From a virus (Duplodnaviria > Caudoviricetes), in IMG/VR virus record IMGVR_UViG_3300022719_000035, positions 2,776 through 66,775 of that record: a stretch of DNA of 64,000 bases; one strand, given 5' to 3'. Below the pieces are notes generated by a model. It was not told the DNA's origin. It did no database searches and saw only the letters and a program-made list of their open reading frames with translations. The first letter of the stretch is position 1. Every line of letters begins with the position of its first letter. Positions 5,020-18,894 of this stretch are shown piece by piece. A program made the translations under genes and the position numbers.

Positions 5020-5306
5020 AATGGAAAGCCGAATGGGGCGCGCGTGAAGATTGGTTCAGGGATCTAGCCGCCACCGGAATACGTATACCAGCACTTGAGC
5101 GCGAGCCAGTGCTAGATGATTGGCAGGTTTGGCTATGCAACGCGCATTTGTTCATGCTGCCTGCTGGCAACGATAACGGCATTGTGTCATTGCGCGAAGT
5201 GATCGACTATTGCGAGGTATTTGGTTTCAGCGATATTGAATACTTAGCTAAATTCACGCGCCAAGTATCCCTAGCGCTGCTAAACAAGGATCAAAACGAT
5301 GGCTGA
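4998..5306 (+). CDS. gpT-equivalent extension reached by -1 frameshift (gpGT = 4615..5306)
   Basis: -1 frame open from 4998: GKVTNYLKWKAEWGAREDW...PVLDDWQVW...NDG*; contains track ORF 5109..5306. Confidence 0.8.
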   Translation, partial: GKVTNYLKWKAEWGAREDWFRDLAATGIRIPALEREPVLDDWQVWLCNAHLFMLPAGNDNGIVSLREVIDYCEVFGFSDIEYLAKFTRQVSLALLNKDQNDG

Positions 5307-7767
5307 TTTAGCCAAGCTTGGAATTGAGATCAAAAACCGCGCAGCTAATGCAGCCATCAAGGATAGTAAGCGCGAGTTAACTAACTTAGGTACTAGCGCT
5401 GGGCTTATGCAGCGCACAGTAACGCGATCGTTTGCGTTTATGCGCAAAGAAGCGATCGCGTTTGCTGGTGTCGCCGCAGGGCTTGGTACTGCATTTGCTT
5501 TTCTACTTCCAGCTACGAGACAGTTTGCAGAGTTTGAAGAGAAGATATCTGAACTGTCCGCAATCACTGGCGCAGTCGGTGCAGATCTAGAGTTTCTCAG
5601 TAATACTGCGCGCGAGTTTGGCGCTACTACTACGCTATCAGCAACGCAAGCGGCGGAAGCAATGAAGTTGATCGCTTCCGCTAAGCCTGAATTGCTTGAG
5701 AACAATGCAGCGCTTGCGCAGACAACGCAAGAGATGCTGCTCTTAGCTGAAGCAGCAAAAATTACACTGCCTCAAGCCGCACGCACACTTGGCGTAGCAC
5801 TGAACCAATTTCAGGAAGATGCAAGCGAAGCAAATCGCTTCGTTAATGTGCTTGCTGCGGGCGCAAGATTCGGCTCTTCCGAAATTGTAGACACTGCGGA
5901 TGCTATTCGTAGATCAGGCACTGCGGCTGCAGGCGCAGGCGTGTCGTTTGAAGAGTTGAACGCTAGCATTCAAACGCTTGCACGATTTGAAGTTAAAGGC
6001 AGTGAAGCTGGAACTGCACTGCGCAATGTCATTTTGCGACTTAGTGTTGCGAATGATCAAATCAATCCGAAGATAGTAGGCTTTAACCAAGCGCTAGAGA
6101 ATCTCGGAGAGTTAGCGCTTTCAGACAAAGAAAAGTTAAAGCTATTCGGATTGGAAAATATACAGTTTGCAGATATATTGATCAATAACATCGATGTTGC
6201 TGAAGAGTTCAGAGAAAAACTTACCGGTACACAGACTGCGACAGAACAGGCAAGCACGAATACGGATAACTTAAAAGGCGATCTCAAATCGCTAAACTCT
6301 GTTTGGGAAGAGTTGAAGATCACTGTCGGCGAAGATGTTAATCCTACTGTGCGCTCCTTTATTCAAGTGTTAACGGATGGCATTGCGTTTGTAACGGACA
6401 TGCATGCAGTTTTGCGCGGCTTTGCTGATTTCATGGTAGGCACTGTCGCTGCCGGTTTTATTCGTTTGCGCGCAACAGTGCAGACAACTTTCTTGGATAT
6501 GCTGTCAACGATTCGTGAAAGCATGGGCGCTGCTGTTGACTTCATAGCAGATGCGCTTGATACAGCACGCAGTAATAAAGCGATCGGTTTCGGCGCTGAT
6601 CTATTAGGGTTAGACCCAGAAACGTTGCGACGCACTAGCGAAGGTTTGCGTGAATATGCTGATAGTTTGAGTAACGAAGCAGCACCAGCGCAGCAAGCAA
6701 TCGCAGATACGAAGCGCGATATTATCGAAACATCAGAGGCTGAAATTCTAGCGCTTGAACAACTTATACAAGATGCTGCAGATTGGAATGCCCGTAACCG
6801 CGAAGTAGCAGCTTCAAATGAAGCAGTAGCAGCTAGCCAAGAAAATGTTAATGATGCAGTAAATGCTGCCGCAGCAGGCACTGAGCGACTTGTCGCTGAG
6901 TTGTCAGAAGGTCTGCGGCAAAAGAAGATGGATCATCTCAAGGAACTTGCTGAAGACGGCGAGCGCTTGCGGCAGTCTGTGTTAACGCCGCTAGAAGAGT
7001 TCAACCAGAAGATGCGTGAAGTTGAAGAATTACGCGCAGCCGGCGCAATTTCTGCAGAGACTGCAGCGCGAGCAGAAGAGAAATTCCGTGAAGAGTTAGA
7101 GCGCGGAACAGCAAGCCTTGAAGAGTTGAAGACAACCGGCACAAGCGCATTCGATGAACTGAAAACTGCAGTAGAAGGTTGGAGCCGCAGCTTTGCTGAT
7201 GCAATGCTAAGCGGCGAGCGCGGCTTCAAAGGCTTTGTCGATTCAGTAGTGCGCGAAATTTCGCGCATCGCATTAGCAAAAGCTACTGAGCCGCTATTCA
7301 ATGCGCTGTCTAGTGGGCTTGAAACTTTCTTTAGTACGGGATCGTTTAACTTTGGCGGCGGTAGTAGTGGTGGCGGCGGCGCTGGTGGTGGATTCACAAG
7401 CTCATCAGGCTTAGGGCTAAGCAGCGCAAATTTATTCGCTAGCGGCGGTATCGCGCGCGGGCCTTCAGTTAATGTAATCGGCGAAGGCTCATCGCCTGAA
7501 GCGTTCGTGCCGTTGCCTGATGGCAAGACGATTCCAGTAACAATCAAAGGCGGTACTGCGAGCGGCGGCACAAATGTAAACGTTGATATCAATGTTGTGA
7601 ATGAATCGAATGCTGAGGTTACTGCGCAAAATAACGGCATGCAGAATGGGCGCGTACAAATACAAATGTTAGTAAAAGACACGATCGATGCACTAGTAAC
7701 CAATGGGCAGTTAGATAAAACGCTTAAACAAGGCTATGGCGTCGATCGTGCTGGGAGAACACGCTAA
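5299..7767 (+). CDS. Tail tape measure protein
   Basis: 822 aa, Ala-rich helical; TP901-type core (AREFGATTTLSATQAAEAM, GSEAGTALRN); C-terminal FASGGI...GEGSSPEAFVP. Confidence 0.95.
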   Translation: MADLAKLGIEIKNRAANAAIKDSKRELTNLGTSAGLMQRTVTRSFAFMRKEAIAFAGVAAGLGTAFAFLLPATRQFAEFEEKISELSAITGAVGADLEFLSNTAREFGATTTLSATQAAEAMKLIASAKPELLENNAALAQTTQEMLLLAEAAKITLPQAARTLGVALNQFQEDASEANRFVNVLAAGARFGSSEIVDTADAIRRSGTAAAGAGVSFEELNASIQTLARFEVKGSEAGTALRNVILRLSVANDQINPKIVGFNQALENLGELALSDKEKLKLFGLENIQFADILINNIDVAEEFREKLTGTQTATEQASTNTDNLKGDLKSLNSVWEELKITVGEDVNPTVRSFIQVLTDGIAFVTDMHAVLRGFADFMVGTVAAGFIRLRATVQTTFLDMLSTIRESMGAAVDFIADALDTARSNKAIGFGADLLGLDPETLRRTSEGLREYADSLSNEAAPAQQAIADTKRDIIETSEAEILALEQLIQDAADWNARNREVAASNEAVAASQENVNDAVNAAAAGTERLVAELSEGLRQKKMDHLKELAEDGERLRQSVLTPLEEFNQKMREVEELRAAGAISAETAARAEEKFREELERGTASLEELKTTGTSAFDELKTAVEGWSRSFADAMLSGERGFKGFVDSVVREISRIALAKATEPLFNALSSGLETFFSTGSFNFGGGSSGGGGAGGGFTSSSGLGLSSANLFASGGIARGPSVNVIGEGSSPEAFVPLPDGKTIPVTIKGGTASGGTNVNVDINVVNESNAEVTAQNNGMQNGRVQIQMLVKDTIDALVTNGQLDKTLKQGYGVDRAGRTR

Positions 7768-8123
7768 TGTCTAATCCAGTTTGGCCAGCATCGCTACCGC
7801 AACAGTTTGAAGCAGAGGGTTACTCAGAAAACTTTGCAGACAATCAACTGCGCACGCGCATGGATTCCGGGCCGGAAAAAGTGCGGCGTAAATACACAGC
7901 AGAAGCGCGACAGATAACAGGGCAAATGTTCATGACGCTAGCGCAAGTTGCAACGTTAGATACGTTCTACACTATTACGCTAGTTGCCGGCACGCTGCCG
8001 TTTGATTGGGTGCACCCGCGCACGGCTGCTGCAACTGCATTTCGTTACGTAGGGCCGCCGACAGTGAACGCAGTAGGCGGCGGCGAGTTTCGCATTCGCA
8101 TGACTATCGAGATCCTGCCATGA
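7767..8123 (+). CDS. Distal tail protein (lambda gpM-like)
   Basis: WPASLP, RTRMDSGPEKVRR and PFDWVHP motifs; follows tape measure. Confidence 0.75.
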   Translation: MSNPVWPASLPQQFEAEGYSENFADNQLRTRMDSGPEKVRRKYTAEARQITGQMFMTLAQVATLDTFYTITLVAGTLPFDWVHPRTAAATAFRYVGPPTVNAVGGGEFRIRMTIEILP

Positions 8124-8632: not shown

Positions 8633-9041
8633 AGCAAATTGGCTTGATCGCTATATGGCGATTCCTTTTGAGCCGAAAGGCCGCACGTTTGACGGTTGCG
8701 ATTGCTGGGGCTTAATGTGCTTATTGCAGCGGCATGAGTGCGGCGTAGAACTGCCGCACTTACTGGATGACTACGATGCGCCTGAAGTTGGCGATGCGCG
8801 CTTAGCCGACTTAGTACGGCGCACATCACTGCAGGAATGGCGCGAAGTGACAATAGTCAACGTACAGTTTGGTGATGGGCTAGTGTTTCGCATGATGAAT
8901 GAACCGATTCATATTGCGTTTGCGATCAACGCAACGCAGATGGTGCATACACGCAAAAACGTTGGCGTGCTCGTTGAGTCATTCACAGCACCGCAATGGG
9001 CTTCGCGATTGGTTGGGGCATACCGCTATGCAACAGGGTAA
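8601..9041 (+). CDS. NlpC/P60 tail-tip peptidase (gpK C-terminal-like)
   Basis: IPFEPKGRTFDGCDCWGL catalytic Cys motif plus HIA and MVH His residues. Confidence 0.9.
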   Translation: MNKPIQACSRKANWLDRYMAIPFEPKGRTFDGCDCWGLMCLLQRHECGVELPHLLDDYDAPEVGDARLADLVRRTSLQEWREVTIVNVQFGDGLVFRMMNEPIHIAFAINATQMVHTRKNVGVLVESFTAPQWASRLVGAYRYATG

Positions 9042-12000
9042 TTTCACAACGGTAGTTAAGCCACATCCATTCGCTACTGAGCACGCTATTAAAGAGCATG
9101 CAGTAGGCGCAACGCTAAGCGATGTGTTGCAGCACGCAAAAGTCAAAGTAAACGGCGCTGCTCGTATCTTAGTAACGCTGAATGGTGCCCCAGTGCCGCC
9201 GCACTATTGGCGGCTAGTGCGTCCGAAAGCAGATGCGATTGTAAACGTAGTAGCTGTGCCTGCAGGTAGTGGCGCAAAAGGGCCGCTAGGTTTTCTATTT
9301 ACGATTGCATCGTTTTTTGTGCCGGTAATTGGCCCAGCTATCGGCATCTCTAGCGCAATCGGACTCACGGCACTGCGCATTGGCTTTACGCTCGCTGGCG
9401 CGCTCATCTCAGGCGCATTTAGTAAGCCGAGCACGCCGCGCTTAGGTACAACATCTGAGCAGAAATCCGAGCCAGTCTTTAGTATTACTGGGATTCGCAA
9501 TCAGCTAAACCCCTTTGGCGCAATTCCGCGCCCGTTCGGGCGCATTAAGATATTTCCGCCATTCGCTGCGAAACCTTTTACGCGCATTGTAGGCGGCCAG
9601 CAAATGCTGTTCCTGTTGTTCGATTGCGGTTACGGACCGCAAGCGCTAAGCAATCTGCGCATCGGCCAGACACCGATAACACAGTTCAAGGATTTGAAGT
9701 ATCGGATCCTGCCTGGATGGAGCACGAATGAGAGGCTCGCAATTTACACGCGCGATTTCTTTGAAGAGCAGCTAAGCGTTAAGTTGACTGCAGAATCTGG
9801 CTTTAATACGCGCCGCACGCAACCGGAATCTGTCGGCTGCGTATTAGATTTCATCTACCCGCAAGGCTTAGTTACGTTCGACGAAAAAACAGGCAACAAG
9901 TTAAATACTTCAGTATCGCTTGAAGTTGCGTATAAGAAAGTTGGCACGAGTACATGGCAGTCTGATGGCATCTCAGGCGCGCGCGTAACGACAACTGCGC
10001 AAGTCGATAAGATTACGCAGACAGCTAGCGGTAGTGACTTCAAGGAATGGCGCACAGATCTAGCGCCGCACGGCGGCACGATCAAGATCAACTTGCGGCC
10101 AATCTTTACGCAAACTGGGCGCTTCTATCGTGTGTTTCAACGCGCAGAAGGCGATGCAAACTGGACGCACATCGCAACAACAGGCGCAACGGAAGGGCAG
10201 ACGAATAAGGCAGTAGTAGATGAAAGTGCGCCGTTCTTTGGCGGCGTTCCATTCGGCGGCTTCGGTTCCTTGTTTGGCGGTTTCGGCATTGGCTTCATCG
10301 GATCAGACGGGCGCACAGTAACGTTCAACGCACTGCCAGGAGTGCGCAATGAAATTCGCGTTGAATCTGCAGGCGCAACATGGCAGCCAACATTAGTATC
10401 GAGCTTGTACTTTACTAGTTCAGGCATCTTGACTGTTTCAGCCGCGAGCACTGCATCACTGTTTCGATCCTGGACGATCCAATTTCCTGAAGTTGGCGAG
10501 TATGACGTGCGCGTAAAACGAAACACTGCAGACGCAACGGATGTACGCACGCGCGATGAAGTAAATTGGATCTCGTTCAAAAGCTTTAACAATTCGCCGC
10601 CAATCGACACTGCTTTGCTCGGCAATCATGTGTTTGTCGAGATGTCGATCAAAGCTAGTGAGCAGCTATCAGGGCTTGTAGATACGTTTAGCTGCGTTAC
10701 AGAGTCTTACCATCCAGTGTTCAACGGCAGCACTTGGACAAAGCAGCTAACACGCAACCCAGCATGGGCTTTCGTCGAAGTGCTAACCGGCACCGCAAAT
10801 GGCAATTCATTGCCACTAGATCGCGTGCATACAGAAAGCTTGTTGGAATTTGCTGAATGGTGCGACTCGCGCGGTTACGAATGTAACGGCGTTTTCGATA
10901 CAGCGATAACAGTGCATGAAGCATTGCGCGATATTGCTGCAGTTGGGCGCGGCAACTTACGTCATTTCGACGCAACAACATACGGCGTAAGCATCGATAA
11001 GCCGAACAAGACTGCGCTGCAGATATTTACGCCGCGCAATATATGGAATTTCCAAGGTCAACAACTTTTCATTCAAAAGCCGGATGCCATCAAAGTTCGA
11101 TACGTCGATCAATCGATGGATTATACGCTGCAAGAAGTAGTTGTCTTTGCAGAAGGGCAAAACGCAAAAACTGCAAAGCTATTTGAAACGATGGAGTTAA
11201 TGTTCATGACGCGCCGCGCAGACGCAGTAAAGCGCGCGCGTTTGCTCATGGCTGAGGTTACGCTGCGGCCAGAGTTGTTTTCGTTTGAATGCGATGCAGA
11301 GATCCTGATCGTTGGCGCTGGTGATCGCGCGCTGCTGCAGCACGATTCGATTTCAGTCGGTAGCGGTACCGGGCGCGTAGTAAGCCGAACACTAAACGGC
11401 GCATCAGAAGCGACAGCAGTAGAAGTTGATGAGCCGGTAGTAATGGAAGTTGATAAGCAATATGCAATACGCTTTCGACTGGCAACAGGTACGCATACTT
11501 ACGCGGGTGTTGTAACAGTAGCCGGTGAGCAGACTGAGCTTACTTTCATTACGCCAATTAGCGCGGGTGTTGTTCCACAAGTTGGCGACTTATGGGTATT
11601 CGGCGAAGCGCAGCGCGAAACGCTAGATGTGTTGATCACGAATATTCGTGGCAATGCGGATCTTTCTGCGCAAGTGCGCTGCGTAAATTACTCGCCAAAT
11701 ATCTATAACGCTGAGAATGGCGTAGAGATCCCTGATTACGATCCGCGCATAACGTTGCCGGTTGATGTGCAGACTATACCGCTACCGAAGCCGCGCATTG
11801 CCGGATGGTCTGCAGGCGAAGATGCGCTAATTCTGAACAACAATATTGTAATCGTGCGTTTGCTGGTTAGTTTTCTTGCGCTAGTGAGTTTAGATGCTTC
11901 TGGTAACATTGCGCTGCAAGTGCAGTCTAAACAAGTAGACGAAGACGAAGACGCTTGGATTGATGCGCCAAATTCTACAGTGAGTTTAACTGCCGCTGAT

Positions 12001-13176
12001 GTGCGAACGGTAGAAGAAGGGATTACGTATGACTTTCGCTTCCGCTATGCATCAGCAACAGGGCGCACAAGCGATTGGGCAGTGCTTAGCGGTATACGAA
12101 TCGAAGGCGCTACTGCGCCGCCGCCAGATGTTCCAGCGCTATTCGTCGAAGGTAATAATCTTGTTTGGACGTATCCGGATAGTCCGATCGACTTTGCAGG
12201 TTTTGAGATCCGCACGAACGCAGGCAACAATTCAAATTGGGCTGGCGCAACGAAAGCGCATGCTGGTGTAGTGTCTGCGCCGCCATTCGATATACGCCGC
12301 ACTGGAACCGGACAACGAACAATACTGATTAAGGCGCTTGATCGTGGTGGCCGCTTCTCTGAGCGCGCGGCTTTTGTTGTACGTAATCTTGGCGATGTTG
12401 AAGTTCAAAACATCGAACGCACGATAGACTTTCAAGTCGAATCTTTCTCAGGCGCTACGCTCACTGGCGGTGTCTGGGACTCAGGATCATTCAAAGCAGA
12501 CACAACGGATCTCTTTTATCCGCGCGGCGCTGCGCTGCGCTACTCGGCAGCCGGAGCAAATCTATTCTATGACACGCGCTATGGCGCGATGCAGTACACA
12601 GTTACTTATTCGCCTGCAGCAAACGAGATCCCGACAGCAACATTGCATATTGATGCTACTGTTGTTGCAGAAGAGTTTGTTATCGAATATCTCGCAGTCG
12701 ATCCAATCCTGGTATACGGCGCTGTAGGAACAGATCTGTTCTACGATGGCGGCGGCGCTGCGTTGTTTTACGAGCAGCCTATAGATTTAGCAGGCGCAGC
12801 GTACAAGCAATGGCCAGGAACACTTACGCCAGTCAACGATAAAACGTATCACTTTCGCATAACAACGCGCGCCGGCCATGTGCAAGGTTCAATCGATGCT
12901 TTTCTATTGACTGTAGACTTGCCGGATATCATTGAGCGCTTTAGCGACGTTGCTATTGATGCAGCAGGCACGCGGCTAACGCTTACTAAAACGTACAATG
13001 CGATTGACAGCATTATTCTTACGTTGCAAGGCAGTTCAGGGCTCGGCGGCGTTACTGCGTTTTATGCAGACAAGCAAGCGAACGCAGGCGCGAATGGCGG
13101 GCCGCTGATCAAGGTCGAAGATGATACTGGCACTGGCATCGCAGGCACGCTAGACGTTTTACTCAAGGGGCATTAA
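9028..13176 (+). CDS. Tail tip/host-specificity protein (gpI-gpJ fusion, TipJ)
   Basis: N-terminal ubiquitin-like gpI segment, PRPFGRIKIFPP, NPAW motif, C-terminal FN3-like regions; ATG 9028 more plausible than the track start. Confidence 0.9.
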   Translation: MQQGNFTTVVKPHPFATEHAIKEHAVGATLSDVLQHAKVKVNGAARILVTLNGAPVPPHYWRLVRPKADAIVNVVAVPAGSGAKGPLGFLFTIASFFVPVIGPAIGISSAIGLTALRIGFTLAGALISGAFSKPSTPRLGTTSEQKSEPVFSITGIRNQLNPFGAIPRPFGRIKIFPPFAAKPFTRIVGGQQMLFLLFDCGYGPQALSNLRIGQTPITQFKDLKYRILPGWSTNERLAIYTRDFFEEQLSVKLTAESGFNTRRTQPESVGCVLDFIYPQGLVTFDEKTGNKLNTSVSLEVAYKKVGTSTWQSDGISGARVTTTAQVDKITQTASGSDFKEWRTDLAPHGGTIKINLRPIFTQTGRFYRVFQRAEGDANWTHIATTGATEGQTNKAVVDESAPFFGGVPFGGFGSLFGGFGIGFIGSDGRTVTFNALPGVRNEIRVESAGATWQPTLVSSLYFTSSGILTVSAASTASLFRSWTIQFPEVGEYDVRVKRNTADATDVRTRDEVNWISFKSFNNSPPIDTALLGNHVFVEMSIKASEQLSGLVDTFSCVTESYHPVFNGSTWTKQLTRNPAWAFVEVLTGTANGNSLPLDRVHTESLLEFAEWCDSRGYECNGVFDTAITVHEALRDIAAVGRGNLRHFDATTYGVSIDKPNKTALQIFTPRNIWNFQGQQLFIQKPDAIKVRYVDQSMDYTLQEVVVFAEGQNAKTAKLFETMELMFMTRRADAVKRARLLMAEVTLRPELFSFECDAEILIVGAGDRALLQHDSISVGSGTGRVVSRTLNGASEATAVEVDEPVVMEVDKQYAIRFRLATGTHTYAGVVTVAGEQTELTFITPISAGVVPQVGDLWVFGEAQRETLDVLITNIRGNADLSAQVRCVNYSPNIYNAENGVEIPDYDPRITLPVDVQTIPLPKPRIAGWSAGEDALILNNNIVIVRLLVSFLALVSLDASGNIALQVQSKQVDEDEDAWIDAPNSTVSLTAADVRTVEEGITYDFRFRYASATGRTSDWAVLSGIRIEGATAPPPDVPALFVEGNNLVWTYPDSPIDFAGFEIRTNAGNNSNWAGATKAHAGVVSAPPFDIRRTGTGQRTILIKALDRGGRFSERAAFVVRNLGDVEVQNIERTIDFQVESFSGATLTGGVWDSGSFKADTTDLFYPRGAALRYSAAGANLFYDTRYGAMQYTVTYSPAANEIPTATLHIDATVVAEEFVIEYLAVDPILVYGAVGTDLFYDGGGAALFYEQPIDLAGAAYKQWPGTLTPVNDKTYHFRITTRAGHVQGSIDAFLLTVDLPDIIERFSDVAIDAAGTRLTLTKTYNAIDSIILTLQGSSGLGGVTAFYADKQANAGANGGPLIKVEDDTGTGIAGTLDVLLKGH

Positions 13177-14180: not shown

Positions 14181-15272
14181 ATGGGCACGGGCAAATTCGG
14201 ACATATACAACACGGCTTCGGCGCGCGGTTTCGTCCGCAATCGATTGTGCCTGCAGGCTTGATATTGCCTACGCTGAATTTCGATGGCGCTACGATGCCG
14301 GCCGGGTGGTCTGAGTATTCGCCATCTCCTGGTAGAGCGATTATGGGCGCAGGCGGCGCGCATAGCGCAGGCGTAAAAGGCGGCGCAAACGATCAAGATA
14401 TTACTGTAACGCTCGCTTCTGCTGGCGCGCATGGTGCTGCTGATGTTGAATTTCAACTTGGCACGCCAGCAGCAGGCAGTGCGTTTTATTTTGATGACGC
14501 AGTAAGCGGCGCTCACTCACATACAGCAATTGTTTCAGTGAACACAGTGCCACCATGGAAAGGCTACACACTGATTCAATTAGACAACACAGCAGCGCTA
14601 GTGCCAGAAAATGTTTTCATCATGTCTGTGACTGATTTAAGTGCTACGTTATCTGCTGTAGAAACAGGCTTAGATAAGCTTTTACGCCATTCTACACCGG
14701 GCATTACTGGCGGCTCTAACACTTCATCGGGCACAGCTACTTCATCTACAAACGGCTTACACTCGCATGGTTCAATGGAGTTTGCTTCTACTACAGATCG
14801 TGTTCTGGGACTACAGCAATTCAACAGCCATACGCATTCAATTACAATTTCAGGAACGCTTAATTTAAAGCGACGTTGGGTATCGCTATGGGCATCGTTA
14901 TCCGGAGGGTTTGAATTACCAATTGGTGCGATGGGTTTGTGGCCTACTTTAGCGCCACCATTAGGATGGGCATTATGTGATGGGACTAACGGTACTCCTG
15001 ACATGCGTGATTTTGTAATACAAGTAGGCGATAGCGGCAATCACGGCAATAGCGCTGGCGATAATTCAGTTACCTATACAGGCAGCACGCCCAGCGAAGG
15101 CGGCCATCAACATCCAGATGCAGGGCTCGGCGATCAAAATAAAATTTCTACTAGTGTTTATCACATTGATACTGTTGACGGCGCGCATGTACATTCAGTA
15201 AGCAAAGTAGAGCCTGATGTTATTCCACGGTACATTGCATTAGCTGTTATTCAATTTCAAGGGTTCGGTTAA
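14181..15272 (+). CDS. Tail fibre with collar-like domains and HxH motifs
   Basis: PIGAMGLW...PPLGWALCDGTNGTPDMRD collar signature; HSH/HQH/HVH motifs. Confidence 0.75.
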   Translation: MGTGKFGHIQHGFGARFRPQSIVPAGLILPTLNFDGATMPAGWSEYSPSPGRAIMGAGGAHSAGVKGGANDQDITVTLASAGAHGAADVEFQLGTPAAGSAFYFDDAVSGAHSHTAIVSVNTVPPWKGYTLIQLDNTAALVPENVFIMSVTDLSATLSAVETGLDKLLRHSTPGITGGSNTSSGTATSSTNGLHSHGSMEFASTTDRVLGLQQFNSHTHSITISGTLNLKRRWVSLWASLSGGFELPIGAMGLWPTLAPPLGWALCDGTNGTPDMRDFVIQVGDSGNHGNSAGDNSVTYTGSTPSEGGHQHPDAGLGDQNKISTSVYHIDTVDGAHVHSVSKVEPDVIPRYIALAVIQFQGFG

Positions 15273-15607
15273 TGGATAAATCAGATTACGATCGTTGTGC
15301 AGAAATGCGTGGAAAGTATTCGCGCTTTGCTGCAGGAACATCAGCAGCGCATGAAGTACCGGGCACAGAACAATGTTCTCTTTGTCATCGTTATTTGCCT
15401 GCTAATCCAATGCGCGGCCCTTGTGATGGGTGTCCAGTGCAAGTAATAACTGGTAAAAGCCTTTGTAGAAACACGCCATTATTAAAAGCAATATCAATAT
15501 ACGCAAAAAAAGGAAAAGCTTCGAATGAATTTAAAGCAGCATGCATTGACGTAGTAACTTTTATTGAGTCTGTGCAAGATGTAATAGCAGCCCTTCCAGA
15601 TGAATAG
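15272..15607 (+). CDS. Cys-rich hypothetical protein
   Basis: CSLC...CDGCP...C pattern; translationally coupled to the fibre gene. Confidence 0.55.
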   Translation: MDKSDYDRCAEMRGKYSRFAAGTSAAHEVPGTEQCSLCHRYLPANPMRGPCDGCPVQVITGKSLCRNTPLLKAISIYAKKGKASNEFKAACIDVVTFIESVQDVIAALPDE

Positions 15608-15616
15608 GAGGCCCCG

Positions 15617-15988
15617 ATGCCAAAACAAGTTCATGTAGAAAGTGCAATCGCAGACGCTGATGGTAAGCAAGTTGTTGATGCCGGTATTTTTCGATTGCAA
15701 GTTGATAGCGTGCAAATCATGCCCGGCCGGCGTGAGGTGCATATCGTTGTAAACCGGATCAACACAGCTAATTTTGAGGTGATCCCGATCGTCTTTCTTG
15801 TGCCTACTGCTGTGTATGATACGTTGCAGGCAGCCGATATGTCAGGCGCTGGAACATTGCATGATGCGTTACAAGCGTTGCTTTGGTCTTACTTAGAAAC
15901 AAATCATAAACGGCATCTTGTATTCGGGCGCCCGGACAATTGGCTAGGCGCAGACGAAGTAGTTACGCTTGAATGGATCGATGTGTAA
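15617..15988 (+). CDS. Hypothetical protein (possibly virion/fibre associated)
   Basis: AGGAGG RBS, 123 aa, no family recognised. Confidence 0.6.
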   Translation: MPKQVHVESAIADADGKQVVDAGIFRLQVDSVQIMPGRREVHIVVNRINTANFEVIPIVFLVPTAVYDTLQAADMSGAGTLHDALQALLWSYLETNHKRHLVFGRPDNWLGADEVVTLEWIDV

Positions 15989-15993
15989 CGATT

Positions 15994-16479
15994 ATGTCCG
16001 ATAGCTTATTCATGCGATTAGGCGGCGTTTTCTCTCATTATGTGCGCGGTTGTATTAAACCTAATGCGTTAGGCGTGCCAATGCGACAATATACCGATAC
16101 GGCTTTTACTGGCGCGCAGCACGAGTGCGCTTGTGTTGGCGCGTTAACGCTGATTGAAAACTTACCATTCATTGCTTTCGTATTCAGCGTTGACGGCGAG
16201 CTTGTAGTAGTAAGCAAAGGCTACTTAGAGCGTTGGCCAATTCCGAAAGGCAAAAGCTATACGCACTTATGGCCAAAAGAATGCGTTGAAGCTTGGACAC
16301 GTAACAATGAGTTAGTTATGCGCCGCAAGTGTCGGATGCACTTTCGCGAGCTAATGCCGCAGCGCTGCGGCGTTCCGATTAGCGACACGAATAAACTGCA
16401 TAATTTTTTCGTGGAGAAAGGTCCAGTGTTTGCAGCAGGAACCGAAAACGTGATCGGTATTTACGGCATAGCTACGTAA
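15994..16479 (+). CDS. Stand-alone PAS-fold (PAS_4-like) protein
   Basis: LIENLPFIAFVFSVDG...GKSYTHLWPKECVEAW...FFVEKGPV...NVIGIYGIAT follows the PAS_4 pattern; start 15973 or 15994. Confidence 0.65.
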   Translation: MSDSLFMRLGGVFSHYVRGCIKPNALGVPMRQYTDTAFTGAQHECACVGALTLIENLPFIAFVFSVDGELVVVSKGYLERWPIPKGKSYTHLWPKECVEAWTRNNELVMRRKCRMHFRELMPQRCGVPISDTNKLHNFFVEKGPVFAAGTENVIGIYGIAT

Positions 16480-16697
16480 TGCTTGATTTCATTTGCGCAC
16501 ATCCAACTGCAGCAGGGGTCTCTATAATAGCTTTGCTGATTGCCTTTCTTGCTGCATTCGGTGCAGTTGTCTCTTTAGTTATTATTGTTATACGAATAGA
16601 AGAGGAACTCCAATTAACTGTTACGGCGTTACTGCGACAACGCGCAACGGACATTGCCGTTAAATCTCATGAGTATGATTTGGAGCTTTACCCATGA
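16479..16697 (+). CDS. Single-TM membrane protein (holin/antiholin candidate)
   Basis: Hydrophobic AAGVSIIALLIAFLAAFGAVVSLVIIVI; coupled to the PAS gene; upstream of endolysin. Confidence 0.5.
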   Translation: MLDFICAHPTAAGVSIIALLIAFLAAFGAVVSLVIIVIRIEEELQLTVTALLRQRATDIAVKSHEYDLELYP

Positions 16698-17149
16698 CTA
16701 ACGGCTCGTATGACAAGACAACGTACCGTCGTGCTGCTGATAAGCGGCGCCCGTGGTGGATTGCAACAATAGGATCTCTGATCGCTGCTGCATGGGTGCC
16801 GCTACTAGCCGGTTTCTGGAATTATGCGCAAATGTCAGAATCACTAGAGAACACGAAAGAAGCGTTGATTAAGTTAGACTCCAATCATGCGCGTGATGTA
16901 AAGGAACTAAAGTCAATGACTACGCGCCAATGGGAAAGGATCTCACCATTGAACACGCGCGTAGTTGAAGTAGTGCACAAGCAAGCAGAGCTTGAGCGCA
17001 GAATGGATGACTCAGTGCGCCGTATTGAAAACAGCATCACTAGTTTAGATAACAAAGTAGATGCACTGCTATTGCGTAATGCGCGTGATACGCGCGGTTC
17101 GCGTGATGCAGCCGAGCATCGATCGAATGTTCCAGTACCTGAAAGGTAA
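16694..17149 (+). CDS. TM plus coiled-coil protein (holin-like)
   Basis: Basic N-terminus, TM WWIATIGSLIAAAWVPLLAGFW, heptad-rich C-terminus; directly before endolysin. Confidence 0.5.
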   Translation: MTNGSYDKTTYRRAADKRRPWWIATIGSLIAAAWVPLLAGFWNYAQMSESLENTKEALIKLDSNHARDVKELKSMTTRQWERISPLNTRVVEVVHKQAELERRMDDSVRRIENSITSLDNKVDALLLRNARDTRGSRDAAEHRSNVPVPER

Positions 17150-17647
17150 GTGTACATGCCAAACAAGTTCAGATGGTCACAGCAATCATTAGCTATTCGC
17201 GCACAGTTGCATCCGTTTCTTGTATTGTTCTGTGATGAGATTCTGACTGTTCATGATATTGCCTTGATCACTGGCTGGCGCTCAGAAGAAGAGCAGCGCG
17301 AGAAATTCGATGCTGGGTTAAGTCAAGTGCTCGAAAGCAAGCACAACACACGCAATCCGCGTACAAGAAAACCTGAAGCACTAGCAGTCGATTTCATTCC
17401 ATATGTTGCACATCTTGGGCGCATTACAGGCGCGCCGCCGAACGCAGCGCGTGATCTGAAATACTTTTATCGTCTTGCAGGTGTAGGCTTAGCCATTTCA
17501 GAAGCTTTAAACCTTATTGGTGTAACAATACGCTGGGGCGGCGACTGGGATAACGATTTTAATATGGATGATCAAACGTTCAACGATCTATATCACTGGG
17601 AGCTTGTCTTTCATGGCGCTTCTTTCGGATGGAGAACAGACGAATGA
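17150..17647 (+). CDS. Endolysin, peptidase M15 (L-Ala-D-Glu) type
   Basis: GWRSEEEQ, SKH...AVD and IRWGGDW...DLYHWEL motifs, as in T5-type endolysins. Confidence 0.85.
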   Translation: MYMPNKFRWSQQSLAIRAQLHPFLVLFCDEILTVHDIALITGWRSEEEQREKFDAGLSQVLESKHNTRNPRTRKPEALAVDFIPYVAHLGRITGAPPNAARDLKYFYRLAGVGLAISEALNLIGVTIRWGGDWDNDFNMDDQTFNDLYHWELVFHGASFGWRTDE

Positions 17648-17913
17648 GATTACTAATTGCAGTGTTAGTTATTGTGCTATCTGGCTGCGGTCAAACCGGC
17701 TACGGCAACATGATTCGCAGTGAAATTAGTACACGCGGAGCAGCAATTTCCGATGAAGGTATCACCAATGCAGTTTGGTTTTTCTGCAGTGCTGCTTCAG
17801 TCGGATCCGTGCGGCGTTACATAGGCGACGATGCAGAGAAAGCACGCGCTTATGATCTGTTGTGTGAAGAAGCCGAAATGGGCATTGGTGAAGTTCTACA
17901 AGGAGATGAGTGA
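17644..17913 (+). CDS. Lipoprotein (o-spanin candidate)
   Basis: MRLLIAVLVIVLSGC signal with LSG-C lipobox; immediately after endolysin. Confidence 0.6.
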   Translation: MRLLIAVLVIVLSGCGQTGYGNMIRSEISTRGAAISDEGITNAVWFFCSAASVGSVRRYIGDDAEKARAYDLLCEEAEMGIGEVLQGDE

Positions 17914-18210: not shown

Positions 18211-18843
18211 ATGACACCAGAATACCGACAACAACGACAGTACATACAGACAGGCGACGTTGTGCTGTTTTCAGGTAAAGGCGCATTCAGCGAGATCATC
18301 AAGCGCTTTACGTTTAGCAATTGGTCGCATGTTGGCGTAGCCGTAAAGCTTGCAGAATTTGGCGATACGCTATGCTTGCTTGAGAGCACAACGCTATCAA
18401 CGCTTGAAGACATTCAATCTGGCGAGTTTCTGCGCGGCGTGCAAATCGTGCGGCTATCTGATCGCGTTGCTACGTACAAAGGCAGCATTGCGTACCGCGC
18501 AGTGTATTCTGCGAAGCAATCGCCGACTGAGATACACGAGAAAACTTCGCAGTTCTATCATCAATATCACGGTACGCCGTATGAAGAAGATCAGTTAGAG
18601 TTAATACAGTCGGCGCTTGATGGTCCATTCGGCTTAGCCGGTAACGAAAAAGATCTATCAACGATCTTCTGCAGCGAGCTTGTAGCGCAGTTATGGCAGG
18701 ATCTTGGCTGGCTAGCTACTGCAACGCCATCGAATGAGTTCACGCCGCACAACTTCGCTGGTGAAGGCTCAGATCGTGTTGAGAACTATCTGCTAGGCAG
18801 CATTGCTATTTCAGAGATCCGCTATTTGCGCGTATCGGAATAA
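18211..18843 (+). CDS. Permuted papain-like NlpC/P60 (YiiX/YebB-like) enzyme
   Basis: QTGDVVLFSG...WSHVG His motif precedes the FCSELVA Cys motif. Confidence 0.85.
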   Translation: MTPEYRQQRQYIQTGDVVLFSGKGAFSEIIKRFTFSNWSHVGVAVKLAEFGDTLCLLESTTLSTLEDIQSGEFLRGVQIVRLSDRVATYKGSIAYRAVYSAKQSPTEIHEKTSQFYHQYHGTPYEEDQLELIQSALDGPFGLAGNEKDLSTIFCSELVAQLWQDLGWLATATPSNEFTPHNFAGEGSDRVENYLLGSIAISEIRYLRVSE

Positions 18844-18868: not shown

Positions 18869-18894
18869 AGCCGCAATCGTTGCGGCTCTTTTTT
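18869..18894 (+). terminator. Rho-independent terminator closing the late/lysis operon
   Basis: AGCCGCAA-TCG-TTGCGGCT followed by CTTTTTT. Confidence 0.8.

Follow-up and report, generated by a model that had tools for sequence, protein, structure and literature searches.

Why should a phage place a small PAS-fold protein, with no output domain of its own, at the head of its lysis cassette? The question is raised by a locus in a 64,000-nucleotide (nt) stretch of DNA (hereafter, the window) from IMG/VR virus record IMGVR_UViG_3300022719_000035, an uncultivated siphovirus of 66.8 kb (CheckV completeness 72%), most of which is covered by the window. Every gene of the window is carried by the + strand, and those of the locus in question are the following.

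15994–16479, + strand: stand-alone PAS-fold protein of 161 amino acids (aa), or of 168 aa if translation began at an alternative ATG, 15973
16479–16697, + strand: 72-aa membrane protein with a single helix, as judged from sequence, hydropathy and flanking charges; a candidate holin or membrane partner of the PAS protein
16694–17149, + strand: 151-aa i-spanin-like (type II) protein with a basic N-terminus (6 Lys/Arg), one transmembrane (TM) helix and a coiled-coil-like remainder
17150–17647, + strand: endolysin of the M15/L-Ala-D-Glu peptidase type, 165 aa (phrog_465 'endolysin', E 1.4e-23)
17629–17913, + strand: 94-aa lipoprotein with a lipobox (LSGC) and a signal helix, an o-spanin candidate

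The TAA stop codon of the PAS gene and the ATG start codon of the 72-aa open reading frame (ORF) overlap as TAATG, which constitutes translational coupling, and the start of the 151-aa ORF overlaps the end of the 72-aa ORF (ATGA). This succession, from the PAS ORF through the coupled single-TM gene and a TM/coiled-coil gene to the M15 endolysin, had been described in an earlier sequence-only reading of the locus, and each of its parts lies where that reading had placed it. With somewhat better than even confidence, the present analysis points to the PAS protein as the cytoplasmic sensor subunit of a membrane module for lysis timing, which would be analogous, and not homologous, to gp143 of phage phiKZ, RIII of T4 and LysF1b of mycobacteriophage.

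The predicted PAS fold of the 161-aa protein is a secure assignment, because PAS_4 proteins linked to it by phmmer, a profile match to the PAS domain of BvgS, an AlphaFold2 (AF2) model and structural searches with Foldseek and VIA-align all point to it. By itself, the protein has no Pfam match, PAS_4 included, even at E ≤ 1, and nothing significant was found for it in Pfam, PHROGs, NCBIfam or PADLOC. A phmmer search of 1.8 billion representatives matched seven proteins, the window protein itself included. Its relatives in that search are P0002 (131 aa, E 1.8e-10), P0007 (147 aa) and P0004 (231 aa, E 3.6e-4), and the search also led to a cellular multi-PAS protein, P0003 (E 1.8e-4). The matched parts of P0004 and P0003 are PAS_4 domains at E 7e-15 and 8e-78, respectively, and some relatives in the family attain the PAS_4 (PF08448) gathering score. 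The PAS_4 pattern that had been read from the letters thus stands for the fold and for the relatives, but the Pfam PAS_4 model misses the window protein itself. The long phmmer matches P0005 and P0006, which have no PAS domain and match over short, repetitive segments, were treated as spurious. A profile of the family matches the BvgS PAS domain at E 1.3e-4, and with VqmA entries it gives E values of about 0.9.

The AF2 model was built with an alignment (A3) of 11 family sequences, a single-sequence run having given a useless predicted local distance difference test score (pLDDT) of 38. In the alignment-based model, residues 47–161 have a pLDDT of about 90 and residues 1–46 one below 50. Strands 60–65 and 69–73, helices 75–80 and 95–111, and strands 115–122, 135–146 and 153–160 follow one another in the canonical PAS order (a five-stranded antiparallel sheet plus helices). 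Foldseek finds 146 Protein Data Bank chains at E ≤ 1e-3, and among the matches listed all are PAS domains. The 50 entries listed by VIA-align are likewise all PAS or PAS-containing, the best being 7dwm_B, the PAS domain of VqmA from phage VP882 (Z 13.3, root mean square deviation 2.6, 112 residues, 12% identity), and the ESM Atlas neighbours of the model are all PAS. The model and the structural matches therefore bear out the fold that had been proposed. KCNH/hERG and ELK channels are also among the structural matches (VIA-align ranks 36–37); their PAS domains, which tune membrane channels from the cytoplasmic side, may serve as an analogy to the window module, and as that only.

As the sequence-only reading had noted, a helix-turn-helix (HTH), kinase, GGDEF or other output domain is not found in the window protein with Pfam, NCBIfam, PHROGs or PADLOC, and the 161-aa chain stops at the last PAS strand. 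It has no TM helix or signal peptide, and no hydrophobic helix outside the PAS core.

The family to which the protein belongs is small, with about 12 clusters among 1.8–5.8 billion proteins. Extending the search to 5.8 billion proteins with a profile brought in no more than P0008–P0014, and scans of viral contigs together with tblastn on isolate phages added the IMG/VR loci L005, L008–L011 and L022. Among isolates, members are found in Cellulophaga phage phi14:2 (g078) and in the Chryseobacterium jumbo phages MA9V-1 and MA9V-2, where databases label the genes merely as 'PAS fold protein' or 'regulatory protein'. All family loci are phage-like contigs or isolate phages. The PAS proteins of phi14:2 (L017) and MA9V-2 (L018) have no direct tblastn match to the window protein and are joined to it via P0011 and the A3 profile; phi14:2 g078 scores 91 bits with the hidden Markov model (HMM) of the family, versus 38–50 bits for generic cellular PAS_4 domains. 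Pattern scans of metagenome and genome collections with an alignment of the window protein and P0002 gave no new relatives, nor did viral scans with P0007 alone or P0002 alone. PAS-like proteins of Brevundimonas jumbo phages were excluded from the family (36 bits, which is the generic PAS level, and a non-lysis context), and the sole tblastn match of the window protein, a marginal one (E 0.3) to an HTH_XRE protein of Erwinia phage PEp14, was judged irrelevant.

Members of the family occur in two architectures. In the fused form (P0004, P0014, P0008–P0013, phi14:2 g078 and MA9V-2 gp249), a hydrophobic helix, a coiled coil and the PAS domain make up a single polypeptide of 180–231 aa in total. 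The stand-alone form comprises the window protein, P0007 (locus L003) and P0002 (locus L002), and behind each of the three PAS genes comes a small one-helix ORF that overlaps it: 72 aa in the window (TAATG), 102 aa in L003 (11-nt overlap) and 48 aa in L002 (10-nt overlap). The last of these, at 903–1049, was found by translation of the + strand, the public gene call having a 68-aa reverse-strand ORF instead. All three partner ORFs have an acidic start, one helix, and Arg or Lys behind the helix. The split pairs hold the two halves in the reverse order relative to the fused polypeptide. From this split/fused (Rosetta-stone) pattern it follows that the PAS protein probably works with the adjacent membrane protein, and a physical or functional link between the two is supported at the sequence level.

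The charges around the helix suggest on which side of the membrane the PAS domain resides. In the 72-aa protein, Asp3 but no Lys or Arg precedes the helix (Kyte–Doolittle value 3.04), behind which comes a charged, helical C-terminal tail. In the fused forms, the N-terminal tail is short and mostly acidic, with no Lys or Arg ahead of the helix in seven of eight and one to three behind it; the exception is phi14:2 g078, in which a single N-tail Lys is cancelled by Glu. In addition, P0011 and P0004 weakly match the zipper–PAS part of ArcB, residues 111–262 (E 8e-7 and 2e-5, far below the model cut-off). Because of this charge bias, the absence of an export signal in the stand-alone forms and the weak ArcB match, we infer that the PAS domain is cytoplasmic; for the fused forms, the canonical TM–zipper–PAS layout of sensor kinases likewise argues for a cytoplasmic coiled coil and PAS domain.

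The opposite topology is predicted if the fused relatives are i-spanin variants (N-in, C-out), whose periplasmic PAS-like head would pair with lipoproteins, the window copy being a divergent remnant with another role. The succession of helix, coiled coil and C-terminal domain does resemble an i-spanin layout, and lipoprotein genes adjoin PAS in L004, L005, L006 and MA9V-2 (following it as an overlapping gene in L005 and L006, and flanking it in MA9V-2 and L004). Moreover, the N-terminal part of g078 weakly matches helix-plus-coil PHROGs, and phrog_1863 also weakly matches the i-spanin-like protein of the window. However, the stand-alone members have neither signal peptide nor TM helix, the N-tails of the fused forms are mostly acidic (seven of eight without Lys or Arg, versus the six such residues of the i-spanin-like protein in the window), and all of the best structural matches are to PAS domains of the cytoplasmic type rather than to periplasmic PDC/Cache folds. 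With a separate pair of i-spanin-like and o-spanin-like proteins already present in the window, this explanation is quite improbable.

On the reading favoured here, the PAS protein, being PAS_4-type and without its own output domain, would be the soluble half of a two-part membrane module. The 72-aa protein would offer its charged cytoplasmic tail as a docking site, which the PAS protein would engage possibly via its own poorly modelled N-terminal 46 residues; oligomerisation or triggering of the helix would be biased in this way, and the timing of membrane permeabilisation would thereby be set. The PAS protein might thus act as an antiholin-like or activator-like regulator of the lysis clock. 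Its binding to the 72-aa protein and its effect on timing are proposals. Immediately upstream of the soluble M15 endolysin, the 72-aa protein is the sole candidate for a holin. Prediction of a complex between the PAS protein (with A3) and the 72-aa protein returned 'no answer' (score 0.00) and was counted neither way.

The company that the PAS gene keeps in other genomes is consistent with a role in lysis. An endolysin gene lies at most three genes away in six of 11 informative independent contexts, and the six enzymes belong to unrelated families.

Window: M15 endolysin, in the order PAS, one-helix, i-spanin-like, endolysin
L003: DUF5675, behind a helix-plus-coil ORF; DUF5675 has been proposed as a C82-like lysin (bioRxiv 10.64898/2026.04.11.717860)
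L005/L014: Amidase_3, behind lipoproteins and a two-helix ORF
L008–L010: Amidase_2, directly after a two-helix holin-like ORF that abuts the PAS gene
phi14:2 (crAss-like isolate): GH19 endolysin gene g077, with which the PAS gene g078 overlaps
MA9V-2: GH108, two genes upstream of PAS, with lipoproteins and a helix-plus-coil ORF around

In a comparison of the metagenomic loci L001–L016 with the window, the PAS gene is the only homologous gene. By our own rough binomial estimate, P is about 3e-4 for six of 11 if about 10% of genes are assumed to lie that near to an endolysin. The linkage of homologues to lysis genes, which had been anticipated from the window, is thus found in these six contexts, the other five lying outside recognisable cassettes. 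In L003, about 460 nt of non-coding DNA (447–910) separate a NusG-like antiterminator gene (3–446; PF02357, phrog_6386) from the PAS gene for P0007; this segment may represent a leader of the late operon and the target of the antiterminator. In MA9V-2 (5762–6394) and L004 (2689–3318), a protein beside the fused PAS protein combines a lipobox with a later TM helix (C-terminal and central, respectively), which is the layout of a unimolecular spanin.

The same survey also bears on the possibility that the PAS protein is an accessory ('moron') membrane-associated sensor with no part in lysis, from a mobile two-gene cassette that would have inserted where modules meet and might serve superinfection exclusion, or as a decoy might heterodimerise with host PAS sensors and so distort signalling of the host late in infection. 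In favour of this, the module is found in head modules and tail modules and not only in lysis cassettes, and the position in L006, between tail chaperones and tape measure, is what we take to be a classic moron site (compare HK97 gp15). The lipoproteins and small membrane proteins that are often its neighbours are typical of exclusion proteins, and the domain is near to cellular PAS_4, the family HMM giving the cellular multi-PAS protein 38–50 bits per domain. However, the six unrelated endolysin families nearby are far above chance, and in phi14:2 and L008–L010 the PAS gene overlaps or abuts endolysin or holin genes within the operon. The PAS proteins match no PADLOC defence family, the annotated region of the window contains no lysogeny genes, and the PAS gene of the window, which has neither a promoter nor a terminator to itself, is part of a late operon. 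An accessory role of this kind is therefore rather unlikely.

Several observations weigh against a lysis-timing module. Five of the 11 informative contexts have no recognisable lysis cassette, and in these the PAS gene is placed as follows.

L007/L013: between a Mu-type portal and a prohead protease, beside a membrane-anchored HTH-like protein
L011: between a portal and a protease–capsid fusion, beside a 65-aa helix ORF
L004 and L006: inside tail modules, flanked by a helix-plus-coil ORF and lipoproteins
L016: among basic proteins of unassigned function

Position alone is, moreover, a confounded argument, because lysis cassettes often trail tail-fibre genes, where accessory genes gather. The PAS family shows no conserved Cys or His and no other cofactor signature, and the residues that the family does conserve (Trp93, Glu119, Lys142, Pro144 and Gly68) occur in the cellular multi-PAS protein too. 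On the membrane side, the 72-aa protein is an orphan, with no relatives among 5.8 billion proteins; its holin role is assigned solely from its position and its single helix; and the topology call applies the positive-inside rule to short, weakly hydrophobic, Ala-rich helices.

In the head-module and tail-module contexts, PAS is always beside small membrane proteins or lipoproteins. A search gave no endolysin identity for the 268-aa neighbour in L004. LysF1b and, in phage D29, LysA2b are one-transmembrane-domain (one-TMD) N-out/C-in lysis regulators of mycobacteriophages, and the gene for D29 LysA2b lies downstream of the tape measure gene and a long way from that for the endolysin (bioRxiv 10.64898/2025.12.04.692442, 10.64898/2026.08.27.747656). 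The tail-module contexts are therefore reconcilable with a lysis role, since D29 LysA2b lies distant from the endolysin as well. The fused PAS gene of L007 is followed at 7591–7992 (L013 5565–5966) by a gene whose 133-aa product combines a coiled coil and one TM helix with an excisionase-like HTH (phrog_10045) at its C-terminus; it is unusual for a head module to encode a DNA-binding protein that is anchored in the membrane.

A position downstream of tail or tail-fibre-like genes, as in the window, L005/L014 and L009, would also suit a tail-fibre assembly factor or a virion-associated protein, and a place in the virion had been named at the outset as an outcome that would contradict the lysis proposal. 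In virion proteomics of phi14:2 by tandem mass spectrometry, however, g080, g081 and g083 are flagged as structural and g078 is not, and a virion role is disfavoured because g078 is absent from the detected virion proteins although its neighbours are among them. The membrane anchor of the fused forms does not fit such a role, and the genes upstream of PAS are not homologous between loci. This alternative is very improbable.

If the PAS protein does regulate lysis, what might it sense? One possibility, advanced here only tentatively, is a ligand- or redox-gated lysis clock at the protein level, in which PAS would read a host metabolite, a cofactor or the energy state of the cell and would advance or delay permeabilisation accordingly. 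The same plug-in module would then serve phages of Bacteroidota and Pseudomonadota with six endolysin types, and the clock would be the first of its kind. Gating of holin timing by a host metabolite or redox cue was the interpretation offered in the sequence-only reading; its fold, its synteny and the coupling to a membrane partner have stood, but redox-type Cys residues are not conserved. Of the several Cys pointed out there, six are indeed present, but only Cys97 recurs in the nearest relative and no Cys is kept throughout the family. For many PAS domains no ligand is known, and they serve as dimerisation modules. A second possibility, comparable in standing and also short of probable, is accordingly a ligand-free PAS domain that, with the coiled coil, would serve in the cytoplasm for dimerisation or as a scaffold and would determine how the one-helix protein oligomerises; this overlaps with the module proposed above. 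It accords with the lack of a cofactor motif or conserved Cys/His and with the fused forms, in which PAS is always placed behind a coiled coil. On the other hand, the PAS core is kept across very different phages and the helix and coil are not, and VqmA-Phage, which has the nearest structure, binds 3,5-dimethylpyrazin-2-ol (DPO), although this is evidence at the level of the fold only.

The proposed module can be compared with known regulators of lysis and with known PAS systems. Cytoplasmic gp143 of phiKZ is reported to tune the class IIIb holin gp142 via the cytoplasmic domain of the holin (Sci Rep 2026, PMC12894885). Like the window protein, gp143 is small and soluble, has no TMD or signal and is encoded in a lysis cassette where it adjoins a single-TMD protein. 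The analogy goes no further, as gp143 has no PAS domain and no match to the A3 HMM; its holin partner is inserted in the opposite orientation (N-in), its cytoplasmic domain being long and N-terminal, and no fused form has been described. The function of gp143 has been tested experimentally, whereas that of the window PAS protein is a proposal. In LysF1b and LysA2b, a single N-terminal TMD is followed by basic residues and by a cytoplasmic tail that is charged and helical, and the gene is coupled by overlap to another lysis gene. In their predicted topology, both the 72-aa partner and the N-terminal part of the fused proteins share these features, and a place in the tail module agrees with the contexts in L004 and L006. 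LysF1b and LysA2b differ from the family in that they reportedly have an extended helical tail only, with no globular domain, and in their mycobacterial hosts, and the likeness is drawn with no claim of sequence similarity.

VqmA-Phage of VP882 (7dwm) is the best structural match and a phage-encoded PAS protein that controls lysis. The parallel with it, which had already been drawn from the sequence, holds for the fold; however, VqmA-Phage is a PAS–HTH transcription factor that acts on a promoter, whereas the window protein has no HTH, and the sequence likeness is at the level of the PAS superfamily. The fused relatives share with ArcB the order of anchor, coiled coil and PAS, but have no kinase or receiver domains, and the family HMM has no match to Escherichia coli ArcB. 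Redox sensing of the ArcB type was considered and rejected: the columns of Cys180 and Cys241 are Val/Ile/Leu or variable in all 11 family members. In T4, RIII, RI and the soluble domain of holin T likewise illustrate how a small protein or a soluble holin domain can set lysis timing on a signal. There, RI and the large domain of T are periplasmic, superinfection is the signal, and no PAS fold is reported; these T4 proteins are not homologous to the family. To our knowledge, none of the post-translational lysis regulators, namely the dual-start antiholins, T4 RI and RIII, P1 LydB, phiKZ gp143 and LysF1b, has a recognisable small-molecule sensor domain.

Around the PAS gene and its partners, the window has the following further features.

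5299–7767, + strand: tape measure, upstream of the PAS locus
8899–13176, + strand: J-like central fibre, followed by tail-fibre-like genes, two small ORFs and the PAS gene
15272–15607, + strand: 111-aa zinc-ribbon-like protein (two CxxC-type pairs), encoded downstream of the tail-fibre genes and ahead of the PAS gene
15617–15988, + strand: ORF preceding the PAS gene
18211–18843, + strand: YaeF/YiiX-like permuted papain amidase (Peptidase_C92 E 6.8e-6, just under the cut-off; phrog_1128)
18869–18887, + strand: intrinsic-terminator-like hairpin with an 8-bp stem (5 GC pairs) and then a T-run, CTTTTTTGCA

The ORFs at 15272–15607 and 15617–15988 were assigned to no family and have no relatives at the other PAS loci. 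In the tblastn search, the endolysin matches 786 phage records annotated as endolysin or M15 peptidase, its match to Pfam Peptidase_M15_4 being weak. The Pfam matches of the 151-aa i-spanin-like protein are weak and of the coiled-coil type. The 94-aa lipoprotein has weak lipoprotein-signal matches in Pfam and NCBIfam and a weak match to an Rz-like spanin PHROG, and its ORF overlaps the 3′ end of the endolysin gene by 19 nt. The i-spanin-like and o-spanin-like genes are split apart by the endolysin gene; spanin pairs are usually nested or adjacent. After the lipoprotein gene come a gene for a 94-aa signal-anchor protein and then the YaeF/C92-like amidase gene, which is the final gene of the late operon and may encode a second cell-wall-directed or lipid-directed hydrolase of the lysis module. 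The hairpin just beyond it ends the late (tail plus lysis) operon. The region had no blastn match in 50,697 phage records, and a search of sequencing runs listed one DNA run with a match, probably the source sample, and no RNA run.

For a lytic phage, the choice of when to lyse is the main life-history decision. Lysis regulators that are soluble or have one TMD are already known; a PAS-bearing version, fused and split across phages of different phyla, is new, and a search of literature full text found no paper tying PAS domains to holins, endolysins, lysis cassettes or crAss. If the proposal is true, a PAS domain wired to a holin-type membrane protein would let phages couple burst time to host physiology without transcription, and a small, portable pair of sensor and membrane effector would be available for synthetic lysis switches. 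The family also yields a testable annotation for the 'PAS fold protein' that is encoded beside the endolysin of phi14:2, a cultivable crAss-like phage of Cellulophaga.

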